Positions 44,899 through 64,000 of a stretch of 64,000 nucleotides of DNA are shown here, piece by piece (position 1 is the first letter of the stretch; each line of letters opens with the position of its first letter). This DNA is from a virus (taxonomy: Duplodnaviria; Caudoviricetes), in the IMG/VR virus record IMGVR_UViG_3300021185_002017. The stretch is one strand, 5' to 3'. The position numbers were made by a program, and so were the translations under genes. Below the pieces are notes generated by a model. The model made no database searches. It saw only the letters and a list, made by a program, of their open reading frames with translations, and had not been told where the DNA came from.

Positions 44899-45144
44899 AT
44901 GAATTGGTGGGATAAATTTTTAGAGTGGGGTTGGCAGAGAGAAGCCGATAACCAGTTTCAAAAAGGACAAGAAGAAAAGAAAGTTATCGATATGATGGCA
45001 GATGATGTTGACCCAAACGAAGTCACAATCGAGAACGCATATAAAACAAGATGGATATGGTATCACACTATTCTAGCAATAGGTATCTTTATGACAAACA
45101 TAGTTTTAATAGCAATCTTTTTATTATTAGCGATTAAGTTATGA
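44899..45144 (+). CDS. Small membrane protein (C-terminal TM)
   Basis: WYHTILAIGIFMTNIVLIAIFLLLAIKL hydrophobic tail; overlaps the next ATG. Confidence 0.65.
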   Translation: MNWWDKFLEWGWQREADNQFQKGQEEKKVIDMMADDVDPNEVTIENAYKTRWIWYHTILAIGIFMTNIVLIAIFLLLAIKL

Positions 45145-47330: not shown

Positions 47331-48335
47331 ATGGCAAAGATAGATGTCACTGAGCTAGACATTTTCTATATTTCATACGATGAACCCAATTGCGAAGAAC
47401 ATTGGGCAGATCTATTGAACAAGGTACCGTGGGCAAAGCGTGTACATGGAGTTAAAGGTTTCGATGCGGCACATAAAACAGCCGCTAATCAATCAGAAAC
47501 AGATCGCTTTATCACAGTTGATGGAGATAACATTGTCATGGACGACTTCTTTGAGCAAGTGTTAGATGTACCTGATACAGATTTAGACGGCAACAACATA
47601 TCAGAAAGTATCTTTAGTTGGAATGCAAAGAACATTCTTAACGGATTAGTATACGGCAATGGTGGACTAAAGTGTTGGCCCACTGAATATACCAAAAGCA
47701 TTAACACACATGAAGCCGCAACAGACGGTGAAGGTATGGAGTTTTGCTGGAAGTTAAACTATATACAACTCAACGACACATTCTCAGAAGTACACCAAAC
47801 AGCATCACCCTTCCAAGCATTTAGAGCAGGATTCAGAGAAGGTGTTAAAATGAGTTTGGATCAAGGTGCAAGAGTATCACCAGACGAATTCCAACAACAA
47901 ATATGGTACGGTAACTATAACAGATTACAAACATGGTGCAACATTGGTACTGATGTTCCTAACGGCTTATGGGCTCTATATGGTGCTAGACTAGGTTGCC
48001 ATATGGCAGTACTAAGTGACTGGGACGTTAATTTAATATCTGATTTTGATTGGTTTAAAAGTTTCTTCTATGATGAAGTAGCACCTAAGTTTGATGGCCT
48101 AAACGATTTAAAGTGTAGTTATACTAGACTTGAATGGCAACAGGAATTGTTATACAAAGAAGTATGCAGGATAGGACACGAACTTAACGAAGCCATTAAT
48201 AGTATGATGTTGTTTAACCCTAACGAACAAATGTGTAGATTCTTTAAGAAAACTTATGTTAATCCTAGACGCTGGGGTGCAATGGTTAGAGAAAAACAAA
48301 TACAAGACCTACTTGAAAAAGGTCTTATACAATGA
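47331..48335 (+). CDS. Glycosyltransferase family 2-like protein
   Basis: DIFYISYDEPN, RVHGVKGFDAAHKTAA, RFITVDGDN (DxD), NGLVYGNGGLKCW and QAFRAGFREGVKM motifs. Confidence 0.7.
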   Translation: MAKIDVTELDIFYISYDEPNCEEHWADLLNKVPWAKRVHGVKGFDAAHKTAANQSETDRFITVDGDNIVMDDFFEQVLDVPDTDLDGNNISESIFSWNAKNILNGLVYGNGGLKCWPTEYTKSINTHEAATDGEGMEFCWKLNYIQLNDTFSEVHQTASPFQAFRAGFREGVKMSLDQGARVSPDEFQQQIWYGNYNRLQTWCNIGTDVPNGLWALYGARLGCHMAVLSDWDVNLISDFDWFKSFFYDEVAPKFDGLNDLKCSYTRLEWQQELLYKEVCRIGHELNEAINSMMLFNPNEQMCRFFKKTYVNPRRWGAMVREKQIQDLLEKGLIQ

Positions 48336-48645: not shown

Positions 48646-48897
48646 ATGAAAGATCCAGAAAAGTTCTTTGCGGAAGCTCAGAAAGGAATTGTAACTGTAG
48701 TATTTGAAAAACTACACACAAAAGAAATTCGTACGATGCCTTGTACACTTAATCCTGAACTAGGCGATTTCACTATTGAAATTAAAAAGTATGATCCTAA
48801 AAGCGACCACTATGTAGTATGGTGTACAGACAAAGACGCATGGCGTTCATTTAGAGTTAGTACAGTCAAGGAGTGGTATACAGGTGAGCCAAAGTAA
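48646..48897 (+). CDS. Small SH3-fold / WYL_2-like phage protein
   Basis: GIVTVVFEK...RTMPCTLNP...VWCTDKDAWRSFRV pattern typical of this small T4-like phage family. Confidence 0.6.
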   Translation: MKDPEKFFAEAQKGIVTVVFEKLHTKEIRTMPCTLNPELGDFTIEIKKYDPKSDHYVVWCTDKDAWRSFRVSTVKEWYTGEPK

Positions 48898-49705
48898 TTT
48901 AAAGTTAGGAATTGTTGGTGCAGGTTTTGTAGGAGGCAGTGTTATTGCTGGCTTTAACAAAAACACTGAACAGTTTGTTGTTGATACAAAACTTAACAAC
49001 AACACAATAGACGACTTAATCGAGTTTGCACCAAGCATTACATTTGTATGTGTTCCAACAGCACAACAAGAATCACATGACGATTGTGATGTAAGCATTG
49101 TTAGACAAGTACTAAGCGACTTATACGATAGGCAGTACAAAGGTATTGTAGTTATTAAAAGCACTATTACACCTAAGCACTTAACACAAATGAAGAAAGA
49201 CTTTGGGGTAAAGATTGTTTATAACCCAGAGTTCCTCACAGAAGCAAATGCTCATTCCGACTTTATTAATCCTAACATGCAAGTACTAGGTGGCAAGTGG
49301 AGAGACTGCGATGCAGTTGAAAAAGCATACAATAGACACAGTAGTGTTAAAGTTGTGCCTACATATAAAGTAGATTTAATTACAGCAAGTCTTATTAAGT
49401 ATACTATTAATAGTTGGTTAGCAACTAAAGTAACATTCTTTAATGAGATACATGAACTATTTGAGGCAAGTGGTGCTAAACCAGATTGGGAACAGTTTAC
49501 AGAAATGTTAGCAAGTGATCCACGCATAGGCAAAAGCCACATGCAAGTACCAGGCCCAGATGGACAAAAAGGTTTCGGAGGACATTGTTTCCCTAAGGAT
49601 ACTAACGCATTAAATTATTATGCAAAGTTATCAGGGGTAAAATTAGATGTCTTAAAGAAAGTTATATCAAAGAACAATGATATAAGAAGCGGAGATTCAG
49701 GTTAA
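48884..49705 (+). CDS. UDP-glucose/GDP-mannose dehydrogenase family protein (short form, no C-terminal domain)
   Basis: Rossmann IVGAGFVG, FVCVPT, VIKST, YNPEFL, KYTINSWLATK and catalytic GFGGHCFPKD motifs; 273 aa. Confidence 0.85.
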   Translation: MSQSNLKLGIVGAGFVGGSVIAGFNKNTEQFVVDTKLNNNTIDDLIEFAPSITFVCVPTAQQESHDDCDVSIVRQVLSDLYDRQYKGIVVIKSTITPKHLTQMKKDFGVKIVYNPEFLTEANAHSDFINPNMQVLGGKWRDCDAVEKAYNRHSSVKVVPTYKVDLITASLIKYTINSWLATKVTFFNEIHELFEASGAKPDWEQFTEMLASDPRIGKSHMQVPGPDGQKGFGGHCFPKDTNALNYYAKLSGVKLDVLKKVISKNNDIRSGDSG

Positions 49706-49734
49706 CCTGTCAATGCTAAGAGTAGTAATATAAC

Positions 49735-49761
49735 AAAAAGGGGCAATTAATGCCCCTTTTT
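49735..49761. terminator. Bidirectional rho-independent terminator
   Basis: AAAAAGGGGCA-attaa-TGCCCCTTTTT between convergent genes. Confidence 0.85.
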
Positions 49762-49774
49762 TGTATTAACTAAA

Positions 49775-49906
49775 TTAAGAAACCCTCGGTAATATATTTT
49801 CTATATTTCCAGATTTCATCATTGAGTCAAATTTTTTAAAGTAGTCAGATGCTATGTCACTTAATGGACGAGTTAATCTGGCTACTGCTCCTATTGGATT
49901 CGCCAT
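49775..49906 (-). CDS. Small peptide (43 aa)
   Basis: AAGGAG SD then MANPIGAVARLTRPLSDIASDYFKKFDSMMKSGNIENILPRVS*. Ends at the bidirectional terminator; CATAAATA lies upstream (50015-50022). Confidence 0.6.
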   Translation of the reverse strand: MANPIGAVARLTRPLSDIASDYFKKFDSMMKSGNIENILPRVS

Positions 49907-50243
49907 TTCAGTCTCCTTTTGTATGTAACCAGACCGTACACGTTGTAGTTCCTTTATCACTAATGTGAATTGCAACTATTAATCAACAGTTATGTTACAG
50001 TTGTGTTACAGAATTATTTATGATCATTAACAGGAATGTTAACTGAGTTGTGAATTCAGGGACAAAATTTTGTCCCTATAGGGGCAATAAAGGGTAAGAA
50101 ATCCCACACCTCTTCGACGCCAGCCGCTATATAATGCCTTACGACAGGTAGGTGTGGGAAATCTTACACCTTACTATGTAATAAGCAAATACCGTGCCCC
50201 TTTTACATTTTCTTCTTTTTTTATACATGAAAAAAACATCTCT

Positions 50244-50251
50244 GATAAATA
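50244..50251 (+). promoter_or_regulatory. Late promoter (GATAAATA)
   Basis: About 37 nt upstream of ATG 50288. Confidence 0.6.
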
Positions 50252-50287
50252 CAAGTAATACTATATAAAATATTTGCAAGGGCCAAC

Positions 50288-50998
50288 ATGAAATATCATA
50301 TTAAATCAGATTTAGAATTTATGACGCAGGATATGAAAGACTATCTCTGTGAACTCGCTACAAATAAAACAGACGAGTTGGAACTACAATACCGTCCATG
50401 GAGAGATATTTCTTATGCTGGAGAACATGATTCTGCAGACACACAAAAGAAGATCGAAGATATTGTAGGCGTTAAGATAGCAAGAGAATTTAAAAGAAGA
50501 AAAATTTTACTTGCAAAAATGTATGGATGGAAAGCAGAAGGCAATAAAGAAATGCAAATTGATGCATTTATGATTCCAGATGAGATTGCAAACGAGCTAA
50601 AAGAAAACGCTGGTAAGATGTTAGGCATTGAACCAGACACTATTGATCCTATACTACAAGTACAAACGCAAGGAAACTTGTTATACCCACATTGCGGACA
50701 CAGCAGAGAGTCAAGTATGTTCTGCTTACTAGCAGGAGACGATGCAGTAACTCGTTGGTATGAGGAAACAGAACCATTTCACATGTACGAAAACTGGAGA
50801 GTTCCAGATGCAAGTAAAATAGAACTTGCAGAAGAAGTACAATTTGAAATAGGCCCATGGTACACATTTAATCATCAGCAGTGGCATTCAGTTCACAGAC
50901 CAGATAAAAATGTTAAAAGGATTAATATCAACTTAAACTTTACTGCTACTTCATACGAAGAGCTCGAAGAAAAGTTAGCAAACTTACCAAAAGAGTAA
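50288..50998 (+). CDS. Putative 2OG-Fe(II) oxygenase / cupin-fold protein
   Basis: LYPHCGHSRESSMFCLL and WYTFNHQQWHSVH...RININL match the double-stranded beta-helix H...H...R layout. Confidence 0.55.
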   Translation: MKYHIKSDLEFMTQDMKDYLCELATNKTDELELQYRPWRDISYAGEHDSADTQKKIEDIVGVKIAREFKRRKILLAKMYGWKAEGNKEMQIDAFMIPDEIANELKENAGKMLGIEPDTIDPILQVQTQGNLLYPHCGHSRESSMFCLLAGDDAVTRWYEETEPFHMYENWRVPDASKIELAEEVQFEIGPWYTFNHQQWHSVHRPDKNVKRININLNFTATSYEELEEKLANLPKE

Positions 50999-51059: not shown

Positions 51060-51096
51060 CTTGCGTACTTTAAAGTACACAACACAGGAGAATACA

Positions 51097-52419
51097 ATGG
51101 CCTCAATCGGATTTATTGGGGTAGGCAAGTTGGGACAAGCCTGCGCCGAGATGGTTGCCGAAGTACATGATGTTGTTGGGTATGATGTTAACCCTGTAGA
51201 GCCTGAAAACTTTACAATGGTTAATGAATTAGAGGATGCAGTAAGAGGACAAGATATTGTTTTTGTTGCTGTACCTACACCGCATGACCCGCAGTATGAT
51301 GGAAAAGCACCTACCAGCCATTTACCAAACAAGGACTTTGATTACACGATAGTTAAAGATATCCTCAGTAAAGTAAATGCGGTAGCAACCAACGAACAAT
51401 TAATAGTCCTTATCAGCACAGTACTACCAGGTACTGTTAGACGAGAATTCATCCCTCTATTACCAAATGCTAGATTTGTGTACAATCCATACTTAATTGC
51501 TATGGGCACAGTCAAGTGGGATATGGTTAATCCAGAGATGGTAATGATCGGTACCAGTGATGGTAGCGAAACAGGTGATGCAAAAGAACTCGTAGATTTC
51601 TATAAAACAATCATGCAAAACGAACCGCGTTATATTATTGGAACATGGGACGAATGCGAATGTATTAAAGTTTTCTACAACACATTTATATCAGCAAAAG
51701 TATCACTTGTAAACATGATACAGGATGTTGCAGAAAAGCAAGGTAACATAAACGCAGAAGTTGTATGTGATGCACTTGCTCAAAGTGACAGACGAATTAT
51801 GGGACCAGGTTATATGAAACCAGGCATGGGAGACGGTGGTGCTTGTCACCCTCGTGATAACATTGCCTTGCGTTGGATGGCCGAGGAACTTAACTTAGGC
51901 TACGACTTGTTTGATGCAGTAATGTTATCAAGAGAAGTACAAGCAGAAAATATGGCTAAAAGACTAATGGAACTAGCAGGTACTGAACATCCAAGTTTTG
52001 GACTAGTACCTGAACTACCAGTAGTTATTATAGGCAAAGCATACAAGCCACTAGTACCATACGAAGCAGGAAGTGCAAGTATGTTAGTAGGCCACTATGT
52101 TGAAAAAGCAGGACATAAATTGTACTACTATGATGAACAAACGGGTGATATACCTCCGCAAGAAGTATTAGATAATCCAGCAGTATATCTAATGGCACAT
52201 AACCCAGCAGTAACATATGGTGATCAATTAGACACAGTTCCTGGATGGTATGGTGAGCATAACGCAACTGATTGCGATGGTGCTTTAACTGTGGCAACAG
52301 GCAACGGTTCAGAATTGACCTTTGCTGAAAAAAGTGTTATACTAGATCCATGGCGTACCTTGCCAGAGATTGAAGGATGTACAGTAATACATTACGGTAA
52401 CACTCGTAACATTAAATAA
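51097..52419 (+). CDS. ugd: UDP-glucose 6-dehydrogenase family protein (full length)
   Basis: CAGGAG SD before MASIGFIGVGKLG; FVAVPTP, YNPYLIAMG, KVFYNTFIS, catalytic GDGGACHPRD, and a C-terminal domain (GKAYKP...DPW). Confidence 0.85.
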   Translation: MASIGFIGVGKLGQACAEMVAEVHDVVGYDVNPVEPENFTMVNELEDAVRGQDIVFVAVPTPHDPQYDGKAPTSHLPNKDFDYTIVKDILSKVNAVATNEQLIVLISTVLPGTVRREFIPLLPNARFVYNPYLIAMGTVKWDMVNPEMVMIGTSDGSETGDAKELVDFYKTIMQNEPRYIIGTWDECECIKVFYNTFISAKVSLVNMIQDVAEKQGNINAEVVCDALAQSDRRIMGPGYMKPGMGDGGACHPRDNIALRWMAEELNLGYDLFDAVMLSREVQAENMAKRLMELAGTEHPSFGLVPELPVVIIGKAYKPLVPYEAGSASMLVGHYVEKAGHKLYYYDEQTGDIPPQEVLDNPAVYLMAHNPAVTYGDQLDTVPGWYGEHNATDCDGALTVATGNGSELTFAEKSVILDPWRTLPEIEGCTVIHYGNTRNIK

Positions 52420-52423
52420 AAAC

Positions 52424-52445
52424 ATGTGGGTGGCAACACCCACAT
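52424..52445 (+). other. Intergenic perfect hairpin (terminator, attenuator or stabiliser)
   Basis: ATGTGGGTG-GCAA-CACCCACAT between the ugd stop and the SD of the first radical SAM gene; only a short T tract follows. Confidence 0.55.
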
Positions 52446-52458: not shown

Positions 52459-53865
52459 ATGAGCGAAAGACTAGAAAGAATAAAAGCAATAGATTTGTTA
52501 ATGACAGAGGAAGTTAGTCCTACCTTTTGTCTTGCTAAGTGGCATCATACAACTATTTACATGCACAGGGGTCAAACACACAGTTGTTATCACCCTAAGC
52601 CGCATGATATTCCTTTACAAGATCTTAAGTACGATCCAAGTGTATTGCATAATACACCGCAGAAGATCGACGAGCGTATTCAAATGTTTAATGGCGAACA
52701 ACCAGAAGGTTGTACATATTGTTGGAATGTTGAGAACATGGGAGGCGATCATGTCAGTGATAGGCACCAAAGAAACGCCAGCATTTACAAAGAAGATCGT
52801 GTTGATGAGATTTTAAATCAACCACCCGACTTTAAAGTTAATCCAGAATACATTGAGATTGCATTTAGTAACGAATGTAACTTTAAGTGTGGATACTGTC
52901 ATCCAATGCACAGTAGTTTATACTTTAACGAAATTAAAAAACATGGACCATACGAAACAGTTAAGAATCATAGAAATGACATTGACTGGTTTACAGTATA
53001 TGGTGAAGAAGATAATCCATATATTGAAGCATGGCACAAATGGTGGCCTGAAGTAAGTAAGACATTAAACATCTTGCGTATTACTGGAGGCGAACCACTA
53101 CTACACAAAACTACATGGAAAACATTTGACGAATTGATTGAACATCCTCGTCCTCAAATCGAAATCAACATTAATACAAACATGGGATATACTCCAAGGC
53201 GTATGGAAAAACTAGTTGACTATGTTACTAAGATGAGAGATAACAATTCAATCAAAGCATTTAAAATGTTTAGTAGTATGGACACATGGGGCAAACGAGC
53301 AGAATACTTACGCACAGGACTAGACATAGAGACTTGGGAAAAGAACCAAGACATTTATTTGCGTGGAGTACAAAGTCACATAACACACATGGTAACATTT
53401 AATATCCTTAGTGTTACTTCATTCCAATCTTTCTTAGAAAAGATTTTAGAGTGGAGAGCAAAATACGAGGATATTATTCCTAACAACTTAGGTACATCTG
53501 AAGATGTGCGTAAGATTAGATTTGATACACCGTATCTAAAAGAACCAATTCAGTATGATATGCACATACTTCCTAAGGAAGAATTCTTGCCATACTTTGA
53601 TAAGATCCTCGACTTTATTAGAGAGAATGTAGTTGAGGACGATAGAACTAAGTTTAGTGAATTAGAGTATGAGCGTTTTCGTAGAGTAAGAGATTACTTC
53701 GAAAGTACACAGTATGATGATGAAAAAATCAGAGAAGGTCGTATTGATTTTTACAATTGGTTTACTGAATATGATAAAAGACGAAAAGTTAAATTTTTAG
53801 ATACATTCCCAGAAATGGAAGACTTCTGGAACTTATGTAAGAGCGAACATGAAAAAGCCAATTGA
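52459..53865 (+). CDS. Radical SAM protein with N-terminal twitch-like domain (1)
   Basis: FCLAKWH...SCYH...CTYC N-terminal Cys set; CNFKCGYC (CX3CX2C); ITGGEPL. Confidence 0.9.
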   Translation: MSERLERIKAIDLLMTEEVSPTFCLAKWHHTTIYMHRGQTHSCYHPKPHDIPLQDLKYDPSVLHNTPQKIDERIQMFNGEQPEGCTYCWNVENMGGDHVSDRHQRNASIYKEDRVDEILNQPPDFKVNPEYIEIAFSNECNFKCGYCHPMHSSLYFNEIKKHGPYETVKNHRNDIDWFTVYGEEDNPYIEAWHKWWPEVSKTLNILRITGGEPLLHKTTWKTFDELIEHPRPQIEININTNMGYTPRRMEKLVDYVTKMRDNNSIKAFKMFSSMDTWGKRAEYLRTGLDIETWEKNQDIYLRGVQSHITHMVTFNILSVTSFQSFLEKILEWRAKYEDIIPNNLGTSEDVRKIRFDTPYLKEPIQYDMHILPKEEFLPYFDKILDFIRENVVEDDRTKFSELEYERFRRVRDYFESTQYDDEKIREGRIDFYNWFTEYDKRRKVKFLDTFPEMEDFWNLCKSEHEKAN

Positions 53866-55159
53866 TTTATCTAACATAGATTTACAAGCAGTTAAAGAAA
53901 CTTCTTTATGTGCTTTACCTTGGTTACACATACATTTATCTCCGGATAATCATATACAACCATGCTGTATTACAAACCCTGAAAAGTCATTAGACATTAA
54001 AGGCAAACAAGAAGATGGCATCATGGATTGGATGAATAGTCCGGCTATGAGTCAAATTCGTTTACAGATGCTTAACGGTGAACAACCTGACGCATGTAAA
54101 ACATGCTACCACCAAGAACAAAGTACATTAGAAAGTTTTAGAAAAACATCATTGCGTGAGTATAGCGAATACTTGCCAAATGCATTAGACAACACTAACG
54201 AAGACGGCACATTAGAAGAATTTAAAATGCGTTATTTAGATATGCGTTTTAGTAATTTATGTAATATGAAATGTCGTACTTGTGGTAGTGGGTATAGTAG
54301 TCAGTGGGAAATTGAAGATGCAAAAGAAGGTATAAAATATAATGGACTTAAAAATCCAGTTGATCAACCTCGCATACAAAGAGACTTATATGAACAAATA
54401 CCTAACTTGCAACGAGCTTACTTTGCAGGTGGCGAACCACTTATAACAGAAGACCATTACGAACTACTAGAAGAAATGATTCGTCAAGGGCGAACAGACA
54501 TACTGCTTAGTTACAACACTAACCTCAGTAAATTAAAATTCAAAGACAAAGACTTAATGGACTTATGGGGCAGGTTTAAAAATAGAATACAAGTGTATGG
54601 TAGTTTAGATCACTTTGGTGATAAAGCAGAATACATTAGACACGGAACTAAGTGGAACGAAGTAATGAAAAATTATAGAACATTACTTAGATCTCCTATA
54701 ACTGAATTAAGTATAACAACTTCTGTAAGCATATTTAACTATGCATCGCTAACAGACTTTTTTGATTACTTAATTGACAATGATGTTGCTCCGTGGATTG
54801 CAGGTAATAGAGGTGCATGGCAACTTAATCCTATATACGGACCTGAAGAGTTTTCATTTCAAACAATGCCAACTGATTTAAAAGAAGAAGTTGCAAAGCA
54901 ACAACTAGAATATGCAGAAACTAAATTAAAAGCATTGTCAAATAATTCTTCTATTATGTATGCCCAAGTAGAACAACTTATGAATATGATAAAACAATTA
55001 CATGTTCTTGCTAAGTCTACAAGTAAGTGGGATCAGCACTCGGATAGATTTAAAAGCGAAGTAGCAAAAATTGATAGGCGTAGGGGCGAAATATTTACAG
55101 ATACATTTCCAGAACTTGCAAATTTAGTTAATCCATATTTAGAGAACTTGAAACGATGA
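53849..55159 (+). CDS. Radical SAM protein with N-terminal twitch-like domain (2)
   Basis: LCALPWLH...PCC...CKTC; CNMKCRTC; FAGGEPL. Confidence 0.9.
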   Translation: MKKPIDLSNIDLQAVKETSLCALPWLHIHLSPDNHIQPCCITNPEKSLDIKGKQEDGIMDWMNSPAMSQIRLQMLNGEQPDACKTCYHQEQSTLESFRKTSLREYSEYLPNALDNTNEDGTLEEFKMRYLDMRFSNLCNMKCRTCGSGYSSQWEIEDAKEGIKYNGLKNPVDQPRIQRDLYEQIPNLQRAYFAGGEPLITEDHYELLEEMIRQGRTDILLSYNTNLSKLKFKDKDLMDLWGRFKNRIQVYGSLDHFGDKAEYIRHGTKWNEVMKNYRTLLRSPITELSITTSVSIFNYASLTDFFDYLIDNDVAPWIAGNRGAWQLNPIYGPEEFSFQTMPTDLKEEVAKQQLEYAETKLKALSNNSSIMYAQVEQLMNMIKQLHVLAKSTSKWDQHSDRFKSEVAKIDRRRGEIFTDTFPELANLVNPYLENLKR

Positions 55160-56406
55160 GCAAGTCTGAGTATTTACAACTCAAAGACCTAGACAAGGAA
55201 TACTTGTTAAACGAGTCTAAGACCTTCTGTATGTACCCGTGGACGCATTTGAATGCAACACCCTTAGGTAACATATTTCCGTGCTGTAGCAACGACTACA
55301 CAATGCCTATAGCCAATACAGCAGATGTCTCACTCACAGAAGCATTTAATGGCGAGTTCATGAAGAACTTGCGTTTAGATATGCTAAAAGAAAAGCATCA
55401 CAAAATATGTGATTTTTGTTATGCACACGAAGAGGCTGGACCACACAGTTTCAGGAAGTACAGTATTGAACATTTCGGTAAGTACTTCGACGAAAGTTTA
55501 GCAATGACACACGAAGACGGACATGTAGATGAAATGAAGATGAGATACTTTGATATCCGCTTTAGTAACATTTGCAACTTTAAGTGTCGTAGTTGTGGTA
55601 GTGAATTTAGTAGCCAATGGGCACTAGAAGATAAAAAGTCTTGGAAGCCAGACGGTCCTGTTGTTATCCATGTTGATAATGAGAAAGGCGGAGTACTAGA
55701 AGAAATCATAGATCAAGTTGATTATATTGATATCGCTTACTTTGCTGGAGGAGAACCGTTGATTACTCCTGAGCATTATGTTATACTAGAGGAGTTAATT
55801 AGAAAAGGCAAAACAGACACAGTGTTGCGATATAACACAAATGCCAGTACAGTGTCGTACAAGGACAAAGACATCTTTGCACTGTGGAAGCACTTTGATA
55901 AGGTTGAAGTAAGCTGCAGTATAGATCACTTTGGACAACGAGCAGAATGTATGCGACATGGTACTGATTGGGGCAGAGTAGAAGCAAACCTTAAAAAATT
56001 CCGAAGCCTAGATTATATTAGTTTTCAAATGAATACTGTATTAAGTATAATGAATTATTATACCTTGTATGAGTTCTTTGAATATATGAGCGGTGTAGGA
56101 TTATTAGATTACGACAAAGACTTCTTTAATAGTTTGTACTTAGCGGCAAATCCAAAGCACTATTGTGCTCAGGCGTTGCCTAAGAGCATGAAACAAACAG
56201 CAGAAGCAAAACTGATGGGTATGTATCAAGGCGAAAGAGCAATAGACGGTTTAATTAAAAGCGGAGTGGGATTTGCTAATCAAAATGATACATGGGAAGA
56301 GGTCAAGAAAGACTTCTTTCATATGACTTATCGGTTAAATAAACTACGCGGAGAGGACTTCTTTGATGCCTTTCCAGAACTAAAACCATTACAGGATATG
56401 GAGTAA
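55156..56406 (+). CDS. Radical SAM protein with N-terminal twitch-like domain (3)
   Basis: FCMYPWTH...PCC...CDFC; CNFKCRSC; FAGGEPL. Confidence 0.9.
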   Translation: MSKSEYLQLKDLDKEYLLNESKTFCMYPWTHLNATPLGNIFPCCSNDYTMPIANTADVSLTEAFNGEFMKNLRLDMLKEKHHKICDFCYAHEEAGPHSFRKYSIEHFGKYFDESLAMTHEDGHVDEMKMRYFDIRFSNICNFKCRSCGSEFSSQWALEDKKSWKPDGPVVIHVDNEKGGVLEEIIDQVDYIDIAYFAGGEPLITPEHYVILEELIRKGKTDTVLRYNTNASTVSYKDKDIFALWKHFDKVEVSCSIDHFGQRAECMRHGTDWGRVEANLKKFRSLDYISFQMNTVLSIMNYYTLYEFFEYMSGVGLLDYDKDFFNSLYLAANPKHYCAQALPKSMKQTAEAKLMGMYQGERAIDGLIKSGVGFANQNDTWEEVKKDFFHMTYRLNKLRGEDFFDAFPELKPLQDME

Positions 56407-57735
56407 ATGTCAGATTATAACATTGCTGAAGAGCCTAATTTAATTAAGGCTGTAGAAGACAGTAAGCACTTTTGTGTCTTACCGTGGATTCACATGCATG
56501 CCTGGCCTGATGATAGAATCATGCCTTGCTGTATTGCTGATAGTGCAGAACCAGTAGCAGAATATAAAGCAGGTGACACTATTCTTGATGTAATGAACAG
56601 CGACGAATACAAAGAAATGCGTAAGAAAATGTTAGCAGATGAGCCAGACGCTCGTTGCCAACGATGCTATGACCTAGAGAAAGTAGGTACATGGAGTTTG
56701 CGTATTAGTCAAAACACACAACAGTTTACAAACAAAAAGCCTGAGAACACTAGAGAAAATATTACAATGCTACTTGATACTCAAGAAGATGGCGGCATTG
56801 AAGAATTTAAAATGAAGTACATGGATATACGATTTAGTAATCTTTGTAATTTTAAATGTCGTAGTTGTGGACCAGGTTGCTCTAACTTATGGGGCGAAGA
56901 AAAATTAAAACTAGTAGATGAAGGTGTATGGATTAACCGTAAAGGTAGAGATACATTACTAAGTGTTAACAGCGATGGTTCTTTCATGGAGGCACTAAAG
57001 CCACACTTAAATGATGTACAAGAAGTTTACTTTGCAGGTGGTGAGATTCTAGTTCACCCTGAACATTATGAATGTTTAGACTACTGGATTGAAAATGGTA
57101 TGGCTGATAAAGTTAGATTGAACTATACAACTAACATGAGTAAAATCAAATATCAGGATAAAGTCAAAGGCGAAAGAGATTTATTTGACTTGTGGAATCA
57201 TTTCCCAGACATTGAAATGTGGGCTAGTATTGATGCAGTTGGAGAAGCAGGTGATGTAATCCGTAAAGGATTCAAATGGAATCGTGTTAAAACAAATATG
57301 TTTGCTATTAGAGAAAGAGCACCACAAATTAGACTAGGGTTAACACCTACAATTAGTTTGTGGAACATATGGCATTACAGCGAAATGTTCGATTGGATGT
57401 TTGAGAACGGGTTTACATCAATAACTAACCCTCCAAGGCTAAATATGCTTACTGCACCGGATTGGGCAAACATCTCAATATTGCCTGAGAAGTTTAGACT
57501 TGATTTGATGCGTGAGTTTAGACTATACTACGAAAAGTTTCCTAAGCCAGAAGATAGTGAAATGAATGATACATTTAAAATGATCATGATGACATTGCGT
57601 AACGGTGAAGAAAACAGGGAAAAGTTAGAAGAGTTTTTTAGAGAAAATGATATAATGGACAAGATGCGTGGCGAAGAACTAGCAGAGATCTCGCCAAGAC
57701 TTTTAGAGGTAAGACAATGGATAGAACAAAATTAA
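56407..57735 (+). CDS. Radical SAM protein with N-terminal twitch-like domain (4)
   Basis: FCVLPWIH...PCC...CQRC; CNFKCRSC; FAGGEIL. Confidence 0.9.
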   Translation: MSDYNIAEEPNLIKAVEDSKHFCVLPWIHMHAWPDDRIMPCCIADSAEPVAEYKAGDTILDVMNSDEYKEMRKKMLADEPDARCQRCYDLEKVGTWSLRISQNTQQFTNKKPENTRENITMLLDTQEDGGIEEFKMKYMDIRFSNLCNFKCRSCGPGCSNLWGEEKLKLVDEGVWINRKGRDTLLSVNSDGSFMEALKPHLNDVQEVYFAGGEILVHPEHYECLDYWIENGMADKVRLNYTTNMSKIKYQDKVKGERDLFDLWNHFPDIEMWASIDAVGEAGDVIRKGFKWNRVKTNMFAIRERAPQIRLGLTPTISLWNIWHYSEMFDWMFENGFTSITNPPRLNMLTAPDWANISILPEKFRLDLMREFRLYYEKFPKPEDSEMNDTFKMIMMTLRNGEENREKLEEFFRENDIMDKMRGEELAEISPRLLEVRQWIEQN

Positions 57736-58814
57736 TTGCGGTTGAAGCACCTGAGAAATATCTCAGTATAACTTGGCAGGTAAACAACTTCTGTAACTAT
57801 AGTTGCAGTTATTGTAATCCTGGTAACTGGTTAGGTGATTTCCGTAACGAGGGTGAATTACAAATTTACTTGGATAACTTAGATACAATTATCGATAACT
57901 ATCAGAAAGATGGTTACAAGCATTATAAGTTTTTCTTCAGCGGCGGAGAGCCAACTGCATGGAAGCACTTTATTCCAATTGTTGAATATCTAAGAAACAA
58001 AATACCTGAAGCAACTATTGCAGTAAACACAAACCTAAGTAGACCTTTAGCATGGTGGCAGAAACATGTACACTTGTTTGACGATATCGTTGCAAGTTTC
58101 CATGTAGAGTTTGCAGACAAGGCTAGTTACAAAGAAAAGAATATGTTCTTATGTGATAAAGTAAACTATCTTAGTACTAAACTGTTATTGCATGATGATC
58201 GTTTTTGGGAAGTAGTAGAGTATGGTGAAGAACTTAAAAAAGCAATGCCTAACTACTTTATCGAATGGACACCACTGTATGACGAAATGACTGTTAACGC
58301 AGGACCTTGGGAATACGAAGATGCAGATAAAACAAAGTTTATCGAAGAACACAGTTGCGAAATGGAGTTTACAATTCCTAAGCCATACAAAGAAAGTAAA
58401 GCACAAAGTTTTAACAAGTACGGTGACGGTTCAAGTGAGCCATGTAATAGTAATGATATTATTGTACGCAGACAAAACTTCTTTGAGGGTTGGGAATGCC
58501 GTATAGGCGACAGTATCTTTATTAGTCCAACAGGACAAATTACATTAGCAAGTTGCGGTGTAAGTGGAGAAGTAGGACACATTATGAAGGACATTCGTTA
58601 TGTAGAGCCTAGAACTGTTATATGTAATAAGATGCATTGCCATTGTGGTACAGACATTATTATCCCTAAAAGACAATTGTCAGAACTAGATGAAAAGACA
58701 ATTGAAAACAGAGAAGCCGCAGAAGCACAAGAAGTAGAAAAAGTTGTTGAAGGCGAAGGATTCGATAAGACAGACGCTGAATGGGGTAATAAAACAGATG
58801 GCGTTGATCAATAA
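57717..58814 (+). CDS. Radical SAM protein with C-terminal Cys-rich (SPASM/twitch-like) domain (5)
   Basis: CNYSCSYC; FSGGEPT; C-terminal WECRIG...SCG...CNKMHCHCGTD. Confidence 0.9.
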   Translation: MDRTKLIAVEAPEKYLSITWQVNNFCNYSCSYCNPGNWLGDFRNEGELQIYLDNLDTIIDNYQKDGYKHYKFFFSGGEPTAWKHFIPIVEYLRNKIPEATIAVNTNLSRPLAWWQKHVHLFDDIVASFHVEFADKASYKEKNMFLCDKVNYLSTKLLLHDDRFWEVVEYGEELKKAMPNYFIEWTPLYDEMTVNAGPWEYEDADKTKFIEEHSCEMEFTIPKPYKESKAQSFNKYGDGSSEPCNSNDIIVRRQNFFEGWECRIGDSIFISPTGQITLASCGVSGEVGHIMKDIRYVEPRTVICNKMHCHCGTDIIIPKRQLSELDEKTIENREAAEAQEVEKVVEGEGFDKTDAEWGNKTDGVDQ

Positions 58815-60057
58815 ATCAGGCTACTGGTATTACGATACACAAGGAAGCGACAATGATGTATTTGTTAGAGAGCTCCGAGAAGTATCTATGGCTACTAGAA
58901 TTAAAGACTGGGATGCCGACCCTAATGATTATTACTTAATAGAATTCAAAACTGTACTAAGTCTACACCAAGCACCAATTGATCAGGATGTTGGTATTGC
59001 TAACATGGAACGCATTAGAGATCCTAATGACAACTGTTATTTAATATTAGAAAACTTCCACGAAGGCTTTAATCATATTATAGCACAAATATATCAATTT
59101 GTTATTGATAGACATCGCATACCACCTGAGAAAGTAATATTATATTCAGGTGCGTTAGACTTACAAGATCAAATAGAAACTTATTGTAAAGAGCATGGCC
59201 GAAAACCTTTTGGCTTTGAAAGTTATTTAGAGTTTGAATTTTCAGTACAGTCTGATTACGAAGGACTTATAGCAAACAAATATAATCCAGACGGAATGCG
59301 TCACATGGAAGAAGTGATGCAGAAACACTCTGGTGAAATGTTGCCTAACACATTGCAAAGTAAAAAGTATGATAAAAAGTTTTTAAACTTTAACAGACGC
59401 TGGCGTTTGCAAAGGCCTATGATGACTGCGTTATTAAAAGCCTCTGACTTATTAGACAAAGGCTATGTAAGTTTAGGATTATCAGACGATGGCAGATTGT
59501 GGGACACAGAGTTATCTCACATTATAGGCGAAGCACAATTATTTCACAAAGGAATACATCGTGTACTATTAGCAAATAAAGGTGCAATAGAAACAATGGG
59601 AGAACTAAAGTTAGATAAACAAGACCTTAGTATCAACCAAGCAAAATTAGAGACAACAGACCATCTAAATAAAATGTACGAAGATACTTATTTTAGTTTA
59701 GTGTCTGAGACTATATTCTTCCACAAGTATAGAGATTGGGAAGACAGTTGCTTCCTTAGCGAAAAGATATTCAAAGCAATATTATTTAAACATCCTTTTG
59801 TATTAATAGCAACACCTAACACATTAAAATACTTGAAAGGTTTAGGCTATAAAACTTATTCTCCAGTTATCGACGAAAGTTATGACAGCATAGAAGACAA
59901 TTATCTTAGAATGATTGCTATACTCAAAGAAGTTAATAGGCTATGTAAACTAGAAGGCGAAGCATTAGAAGATTTCTTAAAATACTGTAGGGTTATTGCT
60001 GAACATAATCACAATGTATTAGTAAACAAAAAACAATTTATATACAAACACTTATGA
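58798..60057 (+). CDS. Glycosyltransferase-like protein (GT-B, GT10/exostosin-like C-terminus)
   Basis: KKFLNFNRR, FSLVSET, FLSEKIFKAILFKHPF, LGYKTY and DESYD motifs resemble the donor-binding C-terminal motif of GT10-like enzymes. Start taken at ATG 58798 (track start 58744). Confidence 0.55.
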   Translation: MALINKSGYWYYDTQGSDNDVFVRELREVSMATRIKDWDADPNDYYLIEFKTVLSLHQAPIDQDVGIANMERIRDPNDNCYLILENFHEGFNHIIAQIYQFVIDRHRIPPEKVILYSGALDLQDQIETYCKEHGRKPFGFESYLEFEFSVQSDYEGLIANKYNPDGMRHMEEVMQKHSGEMLPNTLQSKKYDKKFLNFNRRWRLQRPMMTALLKASDLLDKGYVSLGLSDDGRLWDTELSHIIGEAQLFHKGIHRVLLANKGAIETMGELKLDKQDLSINQAKLETTDHLNKMYEDTYFSLVSETIFFHKYRDWEDSCFLSEKIFKAILFKHPFVLIATPNTLKYLKGLGYKTYSPVIDESYDSIEDNYLRMIAILKEVNRLCKLEGEALEDFLKYCRVIAEHNHNVLVNKKQFIYKHL

Positions 60058-60863
60058 TATACAACACAGACACAATACAAGATTTAGATCTAACACAATA
60101 CAAAAGGCACTTTACTTTTGGGTGTAGTTTTACAAATTACTATTGGCCTTCATGGGCTGATGTAATAGCAAATGCTATGCCTGATGCAGGATATGTAAAC
60201 ACTGCTAAACCTGGAGCAGGAAATAGTTATATACTTGCTAAACTAAGTCAAGCATTAAGATATTATAATATAGGCAAAGATGATTTAGTTACTATAATGT
60301 GGACATCTTTTTATAGACAAGACAGATATAGAAAAGGCGAAGGTTGGAAAAATCCTGGTAACATATACACACAAGATGACATTCCAATGGAAGTTGTAGT
60401 TAAACACTTAGATGACACAATGGGTTTTGCTGTAAGAGATTATGCTATTGTAGATACTGCAACAAACATGCTTAAAAATCATTCTTGTGATTCTATAATG
60501 ATGTGGGGAGTAGAACCTTCTCGTAATGATTACTATGGTTTAAGTCAAACACCAAATGAGGAAACTGACTGGTCAAACTTACAAGTATTTTACAAAGACT
60601 TAGATCAAATTATACTACCTGACTTATTAGGAACAGGTTGTGGCGGCCATTGGGCAGAAACTTTTTCATTCAAAGACGATCAAGGAAATAGTAGAGTAGA
60701 TTATCATCCTAAAACAGAAACATATTATAACTATTTAAAAAAGATAGGATTTAACTTGCCTGAAGATACAGGTAGTTGGGCACAGGAATGTGATAGATAC
60801 ACTGAAGCAGTAGAATTAGAATCGCAATTACAATACTTACACAAATGGTTTGACCTAGCATGA
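60054..60863 (+). CDS. SGNH-like hydrolase/acyltransferase-fold protein
   Basis: FTFGCSFT (block I Ser), NTAKPGAGN (block II/III) and DYHP (block V DxH). Confidence 0.55.
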   Translation: MIYNTDTIQDLDLTQYKRHFTFGCSFTNYYWPSWADVIANAMPDAGYVNTAKPGAGNSYILAKLSQALRYYNIGKDDLVTIMWTSFYRQDRYRKGEGWKNPGNIYTQDDIPMEVVVKHLDDTMGFAVRDYAIVDTATNMLKNHSCDSIMMWGVEPSRNDYYGLSQTPNEETDWSNLQVFYKDLDQIILPDLLGTGCGGHWAETFSFKDDQGNSRVDYHPKTETYYNYLKKIGFNLPEDTGSWAQECDRYTEAVELESQLQYLHKWFDLA

Positions 60864-62434
60864 ACATAGAATTATTAGCAAAAGAAATACAAAAGTTAGG
60901 AACAGACATAGAAATAATCACTCCTAACAAAGATGATGAGTTTGTAGTAAAACTTGTAGCAGAGTTATCGCCTCACACTGACACAGTGGTACATGACGGC
61001 GATGGAATGATAGACAAGTATTGTAAACATGATGTACAAGTATTATATAACTTAGACGGTCAGTACTTTCCATGTGAACATAACAAGACTATGGTTATAC
61101 TTGATACTGAGTCTGAAATACAATCAAATCATTTAACTTCAAGCGATAAGTGGTTTTGGAATGAAGGAAAGCAACAACTTCTAAATAGAAAAAATTCAGA
61201 TCATTATATCGATGATATGGAAAACAAAGAAGGCAATTCACGAGGCTCGTGGGCAAACATATTAAGAACAAGTTTTACACCACTAGCACCTTATGAGCAA
61301 ACAGGACAATTAGTTCCTGTGTATGCAGGTCCTATAACAGAACATGCTATTGATCAAATTACAATTTTAGATTCAGTTGAAAATGTTAAGCAAAAAATAT
61401 ATAACGGTGCTACGCATATTGCATTTGATGACAAAGATGAAGCATTGTATTGGACACGAGTTTACAGTTGTCACAGTGTTATTAAAAGATTAAAAGACAT
61501 AATGCCACCAGGTAGATTTTTATTCTTAACTGGAGCATTAAATGGTAAAGAAATATATTCTCAATGGTGTAAAGATCACGGACTAGAAGAAGAACTAATT
61601 ATGATACCGTGTGCAAGATTTGAAGCAGTATCAAAAGACATGATGTGGGATGGAGGCTTAATGCATCATCACGCAGAAATGGACTTACCTGTTTACACTG
61701 GCATTCGCCCAAAGAAATATTTATGTTACAACCGTATGCCTAGATTACACAGGTTAAAGATAGTAACAGAATTACACAAAGCAGGAATAATAAATGAAGG
61801 GCTTGTTAGTTTCTACAATGAGGATAACCATTTAGATAACCCAGGCTGGCAAGAAGGACACATAGAAGATCAAGCATGGAAAGAAACATTTGAATATTTT
61901 TATGAAAATATTTTTCCAGAACTAGACTATGTTTTAAACAAAACAGAAGAAAGATGGAACCCAGCAGATTTACAACGAGACGATATTGAACACTTTAATC
62001 AAACATATTTCAGTCTTGTAAATGAAACATTATTTTATAAAACAAGTTATCCACACAAAGGACTATGCGACATACAGCCAACAGAAAGTGTATTTTTAAG
62101 TGAGAAGATTTACAAGCCATTAGCATGTAAACACCCTTTTGTTGTTGTAGGCGTAGATAAAACACTAGAGTACTTAAAGCAGTTTGGTTATAAAACATTT
62201 GACAAATGGATAGATGAAAGTTATGATAATGAACCAGATGAAGATAAACGCATGTCTATGATTGTTGAAGAAGTTAAAAGATTAACAGCAATATCACATG
62301 AAGAATGGCAAGCAATGATAATTGAAATGATTCCTACACTACAACATAACTTTGATACATTGTGTAGAAATAAAAACTTAATCACAGCAAATATCAACTT
62401 ATCTCAAGTGTTCAGGAACGATGGTCCATACTAG
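60860..62434 (+). CDS. Glycosyltransferase-like protein (GT10/exostosin-like C-terminus), paralogue of 58798
   Basis: KKYLCYNRMPRLHR, FSLVNET, FLSEKIYKPLACKHPF, FGYKTF and DESYD motifs. Confidence 0.55.
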   Translation: MNIELLAKEIQKLGTDIEIITPNKDDEFVVKLVAELSPHTDTVVHDGDGMIDKYCKHDVQVLYNLDGQYFPCEHNKTMVILDTESEIQSNHLTSSDKWFWNEGKQQLLNRKNSDHYIDDMENKEGNSRGSWANILRTSFTPLAPYEQTGQLVPVYAGPITEHAIDQITILDSVENVKQKIYNGATHIAFDDKDEALYWTRVYSCHSVIKRLKDIMPPGRFLFLTGALNGKEIYSQWCKDHGLEEELIMIPCARFEAVSKDMMWDGGLMHHHAEMDLPVYTGIRPKKYLCYNRMPRLHRLKIVTELHKAGIINEGLVSFYNEDNHLDNPGWQEGHIEDQAWKETFEYFYENIFPELDYVLNKTEERWNPADLQRDDIEHFNQTYFSLVNETLFYKTSYPHKGLCDIQPTESVFLSEKIYKPLACKHPFVVVGVDKTLEYLKQFGYKTFDKWIDESYDNEPDEDKRMSMIVEEVKRLTAISHEEWQAMIIEMIPTLQHNFDTLCRNKNLITANINLSQVFRNDGPY

Positions 62435-62474: not shown

Positions 62475-64000
62475 ATGTCTCAAGACGATAAGCCAATCGA
62501 TTTTAACCTAAACAATCTCGCAAAAGAGGCTGTTGAGTCAAACGAAAAACCTGAACTCAGTGTTGAAGATGCACGACATCAATCTATGATGGATGCTATT
62601 GCACCCTATGCAAAAAAGGTACAACAGAAGAATACTACATCTATTTACACAGATTATAAAACTAGAAAAACATCATTAATGTTAGTTATGTGTCCTGAGT
62701 GGGCACCAGAGTTTCCACCTTTTAACTTAGCAAGACTAAGTGGCGTATGTAAGAGTGCAGGATACGAAACAAGTATATTGGATTTGAATGTTAAGGCATA
62801 TAACTTGTTTAGAGATGATTGGCAACCTAATTTAAAAATACCATTTCCGTTATGGGACCCGAGTGCAAGTTGGCACTGGTTAGGCGAAACATATCTAACA
62901 GATATTCATCCGTTACTAGAGCCATTATTAATAGAAGGCATTGATAAAATTATCGAAATGAATCCTACAGCAGTAGGCTTTAGCCAATACTATATTTCAG
63001 AAGAGCCTACTAACTGGATGTCAGCAGAATTGCGTAGACGAGCTCCACACATTAAACAATTAGTAGGTGGTAGTAATGTACACAAAGATTGGTTTAACGG
63101 AAGAGGCTTATACGACTATATTGTAACAGGTGAAGGTGAAAATGCTATCTTGCAAGTATTGCAAGAACTCGAAGATGGCATAACACACGATGAACCACAA
63201 GTTTTAAAACAAACAAATGTCGAGCGTATTAATATTAATGGTATGCCGATGCCAGACTACACTGGTTTAGACTTTAACGAATACAAAGTACCTAACGGAG
63301 TAACTTCAGAGTTCTCTCGTGGTTGTACTGCTAAGTGTACTTTCTGTGAAGAAACACACTTTTGGAAATACAGACAGCGTCAAGCAGTTGATGTTATCAC
63401 TGAAGCAGAATACTTGTACTATGAAAAAGGTGCAGACATTATGTGGTTCATTGACAGTCTTGTTAATGGTAACCCTAATGAGCTAAGAGCATTTGCACTT
63501 GCATTGAGAGCAAAAGAAATTCCAATGCGTTGGACAGGCTATGCTCGTTGTGATGGTAGAATGGACGAAGAGTTTTTCAAAGACATATCAGGCAAAGGCG
63601 GCTGTATTATGTTTAACTACGGAATCGAATCTGGTAGTCAACGAGTACTAAACGATATGGCCAAAGGTGTTACTATCAAAGAGATGGAAGACAACTTTAA
63701 GTGGGGCAAGAAGTATGGTGTAATGGCTGCTACTAACTGGATTGTAGGCTTCCCAACAGAGAAGCATGATGACTTTGCACAAAGTATGCAGTTCCTATGG
63801 CGTAACAGAAACCAAAACATTAACAATGTTGGTGCTGGTGTAGGTATGGCAGTAGGGCCAGAAACTATTGTAGGACAGAATCCTCACAAATATAATGTGT
63901 CGTATCACAAATATATGAATCACTGGATAGCAAATGACTTTACTATTGCTGGAACACATGTTATGCATCGTGTTAAGTTCTTCCACATGTACTTAGACCT
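62475..64000 (+). CDS. B12-binding radical SAM protein (class B methylase-like), 3'-truncated
   Basis: Absent from the track because no stop lies in the window. AAGGA SD before MSQDDKPID; N-terminal PEWAPEFPPFNLARLSG...ILDLN and VGGSN...IVTGEGE (cobalamin-binding domain); SRGCTAKCTFC (CX3CX2C, near 63315-63350); GIESGSQRVLNDMAKG; NWIVGFPTE. Confidence 0.9.
   Translation, partial: MSQDDKPIDFNLNNLAKEAVESNEKPELSVEDARHQSMMDAIAPYAKKVQQKNTTSIYTDYKTRKTSLMLVMCPEWAPEFPPFNLARLSGVCKSAGYETSILDLNVKAYNLFRDDWQPNLKIPFPLWDPSASWHWLGETYLTDIHPLLEPLLIEGIDKIIEMNPTAVGFSQYYISEEPTNWMSAELRRRAPHIKQLVGGSNVHKDWFNGRGLYDYIVTGEGENAILQVLQELEDGITHDEPQVLKQTNVERININGMPMPDYTGLDFNEYKVPNGVTSEFSRGCTAKCTFCEETHFWKYRQRQAVDVITEAEYLYYEKGADIMWFIDSLVNGNPNELRAFALALRAKEIPMRWTGYARCDGRMDEEFFKDISGKGGCIMFNYGIESGSQRVLNDMAKGVTIKEMEDNFKWGKKYGVMAATNWIVGFPTEKHDDFAQSMQFLWRNRNQNINNVGAGVGMAVGPETIVGQNPHKYNVSYHKYMNHWIANDFTIAGTHVMHRVKFFHMYLD

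Follow-up and report, generated by a model that had tools for sequence, protein, structure and literature searches.

Five radical S-adenosylmethionine (SAM) genes lie in tandem on the plus strand at positions 52459-58814 of IMG/VR virus record IMGVR_UViG_3300021185_002017, in the 64,000-nucleotide (nt) stretch analysed here (the window). Profile matches place the first four array enzymes in a catalogued, unstudied family, NCBIfam NF033640, joined by a distinct radical SAM partner, and the array forms part of a conserved phage module. Trees and gene order indicate that it is an old, ordered set and not the outcome of recent serial duplication. With regard to function, the reading favoured here, tentatively, is that soluble enzymes tailor a carbohydrate by radical chemistry and that this carbohydrate is probably meant for fibre or baseplate proteins of the phage itself. 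Much novel enzyme chemistry comes from radical SAM enzymes that have auxiliary clusters.

The array consists of five open reading frames (ORFs) of 468, 436, 416, 442 and 365 amino acids (aa). The first four are NF033640-type genes and are denoted T1 (gene 1; 52459-53865), T2 (gene 2; 53849-55159), T3 (gene 3; 55156-56406) and T4 (gene 4; 56407-57735); the fifth is denoted R5 (gene 5; 57717-58814). Consecutive genes abut or overlap, with junctions of -17, -4 (the 4-nt overlap of T3 with T2), 0 and -19 nt, as was already recognised in the initial annotation, which proposed one coupled operon. This coupling runs on past gene 5 into the next three genes. Each gene encodes a single CX3CX2C motif, at residues 140, 138, 140, 147 and 26, respectively, and a GGE(P/I) motif is present in all five. 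Very probably, the five genes encode intact and active radical SAM enzymes that are translated as one coupled unit. The opposite view, that some or all copies are degenerate, catalytically inactive duplicates, could appeal to the Pfam Radical_SAM model (PF04055), which scores above its gathering threshold for T1, T2, T3 and R5 and reaches just 20.5 bits, below threshold, for T4, and to the pairwise identities among T1-T4 of only 22-34%. It is nevertheless hardly credible, as CX3CX2C, GGE and the four cysteines of the auxiliary domain discussed below are retained in every copy, internal stops are missing from all five genes, and each copy has orthologues in dozens of phages, with 45-60 columns of the alignment invariant.

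T1 to T4 are matched end to end by NF033640, named N_Twi_rSAM (twitch domain-containing radical SAM protein). The scores are 306.5, 365.2, 355.3 and 354.0 bits, respectively, with a cut-off of 170 (E 3e-91 to 4.5e-109), and profile positions 1-2 to 396-397 of 398 are covered. Proteins of this family share a layout of N-terminal twitch cysteines, a CX3CX2C core and a helical C-terminal region. The cysteines that precede the core are C24, C43, C85 and C88 in T1 and C21, C39-40, C83 and C86 in T2, with CX3CX2C following at 138-147 in the four proteins. These four cysteines, together with W28 and H30 (T1 numbering), are invariant across T1-T4; among 96 homologues, three of the cysteines are invariant and the other is at least 90% conserved. 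The Pfam SPASM model additionally matches approximately residues 21-88 of T2-T4 (21-87 in T2, with Radical_SAM at 133-288; 25-88 in T3, E 5.7e-8). The model matches and cysteine positions are thus in line with the initial annotation, in which four enzymes were given an N-terminal twitch-type domain and one was given extra cysteines at the C-terminus. The sequence motifs listed there are indeed present in T1-T4, apart from the MRYxD signature, which in T4 reads MKYMD. The N-terminal twitch layout is real, but it is not new, as it defines the curated family NF033640. This family is large, with more than 2,000 protein clusters matched in a single search. It has no known function and is therefore not a characterised family with a housekeeping role, and a full-text literature search found no paper on NF033640 or on N-terminal twitch/SPASM radical SAM enzymes.

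Structurally, a twitch domain comprises a β-hairpin and a subsequent helix, has a single auxiliary cluster and lacks the SPASM motif CX2CX5CX3C; the order of the ligands has been described for BtrN and SkfB (PMC6231123). An AlphaFold2 model of T2 from the single sequence was unusable (pLDDT 35.8), and a model from the 96-row alignment (pLDDT 89.8) was used instead. In this model, a hairpin made of strands 28-30 and 35-38 is bracketed by C21 and C39/40; helices come next, at residues 58-75, and C83xxC86 opens a helix. This order of cysteine, hairpin, cysteine, helices and CxxC agrees with the published twitch topology (PMC6231123). Since there is no cysteine between C86 and the core of T2, one auxiliary [4Fe-4S] cluster, with the four cysteines as its ligands, would be expected and not two, which would give two clusters per enzyme when that of the core is counted. 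According to the model, T2 can thus be considered a twitch protein in the structural sense, having the hairpin, the helix and a single predicted cluster. T1-T4 depart from the usual arrangement in one respect, as the twitch is normally C-terminal to the core and the module here is located at approximately residues 20-90, ahead of it, which is a known peculiarity of NF033640. Residues 127-394 of the T2 model can be aligned with known radical SAM cores. Searches with Foldseek against the PDB, with VIA-align in a wide search and against the Swiss-Prot part of the AlphaFold database returned generic radical SAM cores only, with tied scores and no family singled out. In a PDB profile search with the N_Twi profile, the best match had an E of 0.007, and the family is without a solved structure.

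R5, by contrast with T1-T4, is assigned by profile comparison to a separate radical SAM family and is not their paralogue. The protein scores 38.8 bits on NF033640, over profile positions 109-227 (the core) only, and is not a member. In an hhalign comparison with the T family, just 78 core columns are shared (probability 96.7%). Of the five paralogues that were initially proposed, four therefore belong to one family and the fifth does not. Besides the CX3CX2C motif at residue 26, R5 has six further invariant cysteines (C146, C261, C280, C303, C308 and C310), five of which are situated in the C-terminal 105 residues. By motif only, this cysteine-rich region looks twitch- or SPASM-like. Relocation of the T twitch by permutation was considered as its origin and ruled out, as hhalign found no homology (probability 0.2%). 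Orthologues of R5 occur in more than 120 clusters, are 63-79% identical and typically have 321 aa; the protein encoded here has an extra acidic tail of approximately 45 aa (58680-58814), which is missing from most of them. No protein-level match to R5 was found in 50,697 GenBank phage records, and a PDB profile search gave generic radical SAM cores only.

The age and order of the array become apparent from its relatives. An IMG/VR scan yielded at least 596 viral stretches that encode the N_Twi family, and the best 79 loci are the basis of all neighbour counts in this text; their ORFs were labelled by best match to the window proteins. A locus contains one to eight T copies, most often three or four. 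Across the 79 loci, the order T1, T2/T3 in variable number, T4 and R5 is kept, with R5 following T4 in 49 of them. Copy number varies only in the middle class (T2/T3) and, in some phages, for T1 too. Identical five-gene order is found on contigs that are 69-93% identical to this one and likewise on a contig of approximately 42% identity, which carries a giant ORF of 6310 aa.

Two trees were constructed, one with cellular and phage relatives and a second of 281 T copies. The second tree contains a T1 clade of 88 rows from 70 viral loci (support 100), 68 rows of which are first in their array, and a T4 clade of 59 rows from 55 loci (support 92), 37 of which are last, T4 usually being the final T gene. 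In the tree with cellular relatives, T1 groups with ORF349 of Ralstonia phage RsoM2USA and Bdellovibrionota sequences in a clade of its own (100% support). T2 and T3 are sisters (99% SH-aLRT), and T4 is placed elsewhere. The serial duplication that had been proposed for this array therefore applies to the T2/T3 pair, but not to T1 and T4, which stand in other clades. Because T1, T2/T3, T4 and R5 are old groups in a fixed order, a multi-step or multi-site enzyme set, as the initial annotation envisaged, is plausible.

The viral setting is supported; the DNA comes from an uncultured marine phage. The window corresponds to the minus strand of positions 5303-69302 of an 80,414-bp IMG/VR contig, for which CheckV estimates a completeness of approximately 20%. 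PHROG matches point to a T4-like myovirus, with homologues of SbcCD-like gp46/47, the gp55 late sigma factor, a gp5-type hub with lysozyme and a gp6-type wedge of 1400 aa. None of the GenBank phages matches the window at the DNA level. The gp5 and gp6 genes are followed by a giant ORF of 5616 aa with Big_9, cadherin-like and YHYH domains, then by a tail-fibre-like gene of 666 aa and then by the array region. Genes for IscA- or IscU-type iron-sulphur scaffolds were not found on the 80-kb contig, which says little as the contig represents approximately 20% of the genome.

Around the array, a recurrent gene order can be recognised in the 79 loci. It runs from a 216-aa protein, a fibre-like gene, a Ser/Thr/Gly-rich protein of approximately 320 aa, a 119-aa protein and two proteins resembling glycosyltransferases (GTs) of the GT-A/GT8 type, through a small ORF and the family named A334, to T1, T2/T3, T4, R5, the family named X437 and often a B12 radical SAM gene. 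In the window, where all of the following genes are on the plus strand, the module starts at 39394-42806 with the tail-fibre-like gene (PHROG tail-fibre, E 2.9e-12), a 323-aa protein and the 119-aa protein, which recur in 37-40 of the 79 loci with their order kept. The 323-aa protein (41410-42381) is rich in Ser, Thr, Gly, Ala and Asn and is kept between the fibre and transferase-like genes in 40 of the 79 loci; it is a candidate acceptor of the product of the module. The two GT-A/GT8-like genes follow at 42790-43686 (LDADYL, a DxD motif; weak match to phrog_1903; 52/79 loci) and 45141-46004 (LDTDMI; 55/79 loci), the second one with an Atlas lead to Mannosyl_trans3 (12% of one cluster). Both are putative glycosyltransferases, assigned by motif and lead without a family model. 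A334 (47331-48335) is a putative GT2-like (GT-A) glycosyltransferase with a VDGDN motif. It is present in 64 of the 79 viral loci, in most related phages directly before T1, and its Atlas cluster was automatically named 'Glycosyltransferase 2-like' (score 0.99). Pfam gives faint GT2 matches for 6 of 25 members of this family (E 0.015 or weaker), and a PDB profile search gave chance-level matches only.

In this window, two genes of the UDP-glucose/GDP-mannose dehydrogenase family are inserted between A334 and T1. The first encodes a short protein of 273 aa (48884-49705; UDPG_MGDP_dh E 2.7e-20, UDPG_MGDP_dh_N E 3.4e-16), and the second one of 452 aa, directly 5′ of T1 (51061-52419; E 2.2e-18 and 3.2e-14, respectively). 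A 583-nt gap (49705-50288) separates the short dehydrogenase gene from a 236-aa ORF. It contains a strong two-way terminator-like hairpin (49735-49761) and a minus-strand ORF of 66 aa (49775-49975), and looks like the seam of an inserted gene cassette. A perfect hairpin with a 9-bp stem (ATGTGGGTG...CACCCACAT) is situated at 52424-52445, between the stop of the longer dehydrogenase gene and the start of T1, and no T-run follows it on the plus strand.

Downstream of R5, X437 (58744-60057; 62/79 loci) probably starts at an ATG near 58798, the Atlas sequence beginning at residue 19. The protein may be a GT-B/GT10-like transferase, the lead being that GT10 is its nearest named Atlas cluster (score 0.80); there was no Pfam or PDB profile match, and 24 members scanned singly gave no glycosyltransferase signal. 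The next gene, S269 (60054-60863; 32/79 loci), encodes a conserved protein with an FTFGCS motif, overlaps the end of X437 by 4 nt and has no family match in Pfam, NCBIfam or PHROG. It is followed by a second member of the X437 family (524 aa; 60860-62434), which is 25% identical to the protein encoded at 58744 and shares its SET, SEK and HPF motifs. Lastly, the end of the window truncates another radical SAM gene, the sixth (62475-64000), which encodes a B12-binding (class B) protein of approximately 781 aa (Radical_SAM E 7e-16, PF04055 59.3 bits; B12-binding E 1e-7, PF02310 32.1 bits, at the cut-off). Its best NCBIfam models are B12 radical SAM methyltransferases, all under their cut-offs. 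Directly after this gene, approximately 770 nt past the window end (L006:3516-4535, contig minus strand), lies a 339-aa homologue of StrB1, the L-arginine:inosamine-phosphate amidinotransferase (PDB 1bwd, E 1.8e-67, residues 21-338).

The last two genes bring up the idea that the product of the block is a free small molecule resembling aminocyclitols or aminoglycosides, i.e., a guanidinylated, C-methylated and radical-oxidised pseudo-sugar directed against the host or competitors. The enzyme types do fit aminoglycoside pathways, given the StrB1 homologue, twitch radical SAM enzymes of the BtrN domain type and the B12 radical SAM enzyme. Moreover, DHQ-synthase-family and NTP_transferase genes accompany a long N_Twi form on another phage-like contig, and the amidinotransferase and radical SAM genes of cyanophage S-SCSM2R have been read as 'antibiotic synthesis genes' in a 2025 paper (PMC12801897). 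This idea is very improbable all the same. Amidinotransferase homologues are present in just 9 of the 79 loci and the B12 enzyme in 22, genes of the DHQ-synthase and NTP_transferase families were not found on this contig, and no exporter was found in the block. In addition, the several transferase-like proteins and the fixed link with fibre genes are better suited to a polymer or a protein-bound glycan.

Alternatively, the block could remodel a host surface polysaccharide (O-antigen, capsule or lipopolysaccharide core) against superinfection, with the radical SAM enzymes making an unusual sugar. Superinfection blocking has been proposed as a role of glycosyltransferases encoded in the host recognition cluster of pelagimyophages (PMC7029224), and UDP-sugar dehydrogenases and AsnB-like genes, the latter found beside a cellular relative, are typical of O-antigen loci. 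Against this stands the protein complement of the block. None of its approximately 30 proteins (approximately 30 kb) has more than two hydrophobic segments, so that no flippase, polymerase, lipid-carrier or initiating transferase, nor any other polytopic membrane protein, was found in it. Furthermore, the core of the block is kept across phages that are 35-45% identical and in a soil Ralstonia jumbo phage, which is hard to square with host-specific O-antigen chemistry, and the block is located in the structural gene cluster and not among early genes. Remodelling of the host surface is therefore considered quite unlikely.

The Ralstonia jumbo phage, RsoM2USA (MG752970), is a cultured phage and one of the nearest known counterparts of the module. 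T1 is 34.7% identical to its ORF349, and tblastn shows that ORF348-355 make up a minimal module with a fibre-like gene, a homologue of the 119-aa protein, two GT8-like genes, A334, T1 and a second A334-like gene. As in the window, with which it shares its gene order, this module follows baseplate genes and a giant structural gene, ORF361. Its genes (L012:567-10027, ORF348-358) are all annotated as hypothetical protein; ORF361 and ORF356 were identified as virion proteins by mass spectrometry (PMC8504454). RsoM2USA differs from the phage studied here in being a soil phage with a different host and in having a single radical SAM gene, T1, without T2-T4, R5, X437 or the B12 enzyme. For T2, cultured phages offer only distant copies, single or arrayed, in KVP40-like Vibrio phages (approximately 20-23% identity).

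Natural fusions and cellular relatives give further indications. A 735-aa fusion of a T2-T4-type protein with an R5-type protein, also seen in protein P0298, is encoded at L035:6906-9113 and L036:7038-9245, on two contigs that had been assigned to the bin 'Rickettsiales MED657', although they show synteny with the phage module described here. This fusion counts for joint action of T and R5 enzymes. A complex of T4 and R5, prediction of which was prompted by the fusion, scored 0.01, which gives no verdict and is evidence neither way. Fusions of two T proteins, of approximately 817 aa, are common. In two other proteins (P0300 and P0301), the N_Twi enzyme is preceded by a region of approximately 450 aa that gives matches to GH13/hDGE_amylase at its start (E 4.6e-18 and 3.5e-19); in one of these cases, a gene for a PfkB-family kinase comes next. 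The long N_Twi form, of 1053 aa, lies on a phage-like contig with NTP_transferase, DHQ-synthase-family and Asp/Arg-hydroxylase genes. On a 596-kb Bdellovibrionales contig, a T1-type gene has two AsnB-like genes, a gene for a short UDPG dehydrogenase and a GT2 gene as neighbours, and a UDPGP-family gene adjoins a seven-copy array on another contig. In several phyla, genes for GT1, GT2 and ABC ATPase proteins are repeatedly found close to family members. As most cellular contexts reflect lineage-specific synteny, the support that they give is suggestive and not statistical. In contigs of Bdellovibrionota metagenome-assembled genomes (L020:1-13795, L056 and L023), the N_Twi family is strongly expanded: as many as seven copies, distributed over both strands, occur within 13.8 kb, and R5-type and B12 radical SAM genes are sometimes present as well. 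A possible link with flagellin, suggested by a T1-type gene between two flagellin genes on one Bdellovibrionota contig, was dismissed as coincidence, as no other locus has flagellin.

The preference for a carbohydrate derives from the solidly assigned neighbours, i.e., the UDP-sugar dehydrogenases, the StrB1 homologue and an epimerase/GDP-mannose-dehydratase gene in the relative of approximately 42% identity, combined with the GH13 fusion and with the fact that no sign of a peptide substrate was found. The fibre or baseplate proteins would be the likeliest destination because the block is soluble, is without export genes and is tied to fibre genes across very distant phages; both here and in RsoM2USA, it follows the gp5, gp6, giant-protein and fibre genes (PMC8504454). 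In the tailoring that is tentatively favoured, T1-T4 and R5 would each abstract a hydrogen from a carbohydrate-type substrate, which could be a nucleotide sugar, a cyclitol or a sugar attached to its acceptor. The auxiliary cluster would handle the electron, as in oxidation, epimerisation or dehydration of the BtrN/BlsE type, and the different paralogues may serve successive steps or positions. The neighbouring transferase-like proteins would build the product in the cytoplasm, and its most likely final location would be the fibre or baseplate proteins of the phage itself.

The enzymes that inspire this scheme are BtrN, the 2-deoxy-scyllo-inosamine dehydrogenase of butirosin synthesis, and BlsE from the blasticidin S pathway. 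Both are similar to T1-T4 in having one auxiliary cluster and a four-cysteine twitch (the BtrN arrangement as in PMC6231123), and they act on sugars or cyclitols, which corresponds with the carbohydrate-type genes that neighbour the array. BlsE is the top VIA-align match to the T2 model (Z 10.5, rmsd 3.8, 211 residues), although the tie with peptide maturases means that the substrate is not fixed by it. The two enzymes differ from T1-T4 in that their twitch comes after the core instead of before it, and sequence kinship is limited to the superfamily core. BtrN is not among the structure matches listed, and the PDB profile search gave no sequence match to BtrN or BlsE.

The comparison with SPASM/twitch maturases (anSME, CteB, SkfB and SuiB) leads to a different reading, in which the enzymes modify a phage structural protein directly. 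The 666-aa fibre protein, the 323-aa protein or the 5616-aa baseplate protein would receive cross-links, epimerisations or other C-H functionalisations, with one site per paralogue. Most characterised SPASM/twitch enzymes indeed act on peptides or proteins (PMC6231123; PMC11002830). The maturases share a radical SAM core and a cysteine-rich auxiliary domain with T1-T4 and give the best Foldseek matches (E 3e-6 to 1e-4), and the nearest structural matches as a whole include anSME, CteB, SkfB, SuiB and ChlB. The tie of the array to fibre genes in nearly every locus and in RsoM2USA would fit a protein target, and the varying copy number of T2/T3 would be in keeping with target sites that differ in number. 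There are also differences from the maturases: the array enzymes T1-T4 have a single predicted auxiliary cluster and an N-terminal auxiliary domain, TM-scores are 0.3-0.4, and a RiPP recognition element (RRE) and a precursor peptide were not found. An RRE or other peptide-binding domain was not detected with Pfam and NCBIfam, which divergent RREs could escape. Similarly, no substrate peptide or conserved short ORF recurs beside the array in the 79 loci, as seen without a systematic screen, so that distant precursors could escape. The conserved 119-aa protein has no cysteine-rich or repeated motif, one natural fusion partner is a GH13-like domain and not a protein-binding module, and the cellular homologues occur in varied contexts without precursor-like genes. 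Direct modification of a structural protein is regarded as rather unlikely, but it is a serious competitor of the carbohydrate reading, and the strongest one. Of the two substrate classes named in the initial annotation, sugars are the one to which the genomic context points, and no recurring candidate came forward for peptides, as seen without a systematic screen.

Several observations weigh against carbohydrate tailoring and keep it tentative. No reaction is known for any member of NF033640 or of the R5 family. The structural comparisons do not separate sugar- and peptide-acting relatives: VIA-align Z-scores of the T2 model are tied (BlsE 10.5, CteB 10.0, anSME 10.0, MoaA 9.5), and the Foldseek TM-scores are as low as noted above. 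UDP-sugar dehydrogenases are present in just 25-27 of the 79 loci, approximately one third (the 452-aa type in 27), and the scarcity of amidinotransferase homologues counts in the same direction. For A334, the GT8-like pair and X437, the transferase calls are based on motifs, automatically assigned cluster names and faint matches. The GH13 fusion is limited to two protein clusters on short (6-8 kb) metagenome contigs, and in 16-kb neighbourhoods sugar genes near cellular homologues are not clearly above chance. No evidence exists for glycosylation of any virion protein. Finally, late expression of the module finds no support in promoters of the T4 type, as the T4 late-promoter box TATAAATA does not occur on either strand of window positions 1-64000, with approximately 8 occurrences expected (standard deviation 2.9). 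Because of this shortfall, the late promoters of this phage must differ from those of T4.

Comparable genes have been mentioned before in marine phages. In pelagimyophages, a host recognition cluster located between VrlC and gp14 contains 'radical SAM cassettes' (Zaragoza-Solas et al., 2020; PMC7029224). Twelve radical SAM genes have been noted in the genome of a T4-like marine virus (Nishimura et al., 2017; PMC5332604). The pelagimyophage cassettes belong to the same kind of phage and occupy the same place, 3′ of a giant VrlC-type protein and tail fibres, among glycosyltransferase and UDP-glucose dehydrogenase genes. Both papers mention the genes only; they assign neither a family nor a function and describe no domain layout, order of subfamilies or partner enzyme. 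What is added here to NF033640 is the phage setting, the fixed subfamilies T1, T2/T3 and T4, the partner R5 and the fusions.

The gain from this window alone is modest, as the family had been catalogued and the cassettes had been mentioned in literature. Its significance lies in the recurrence of a fixed four-enzyme set with a highly conserved partner in many uncultured T4-like and jumbo phages, at the place where host recognition is encoded. As RsoM2USA is in culture and has the minimal module, the question can be addressed experimentally. Should the product be displayed on fibres or change the host surface, it would be relevant to host recognition by abundant marine and freshwater phages and to their competition, and the array would offer enzymologists a defined, co-evolving enzyme set to reconstitute. 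In the most specific version of the favoured reading, T1-T4 and R5 would carry out a multi-step radical transformation of a sugar or cyclitol, and the phage transferases would attach the product to tail-fibre or baseplate proteins. Taken as a whole, this version is unlikely. Were it true, the receptor-binding apparatus of a large group of abundant aquatic phages would carry a glycan made by radical SAM enzymes, a virion glycosylation chemistry that has not been described for any virus.

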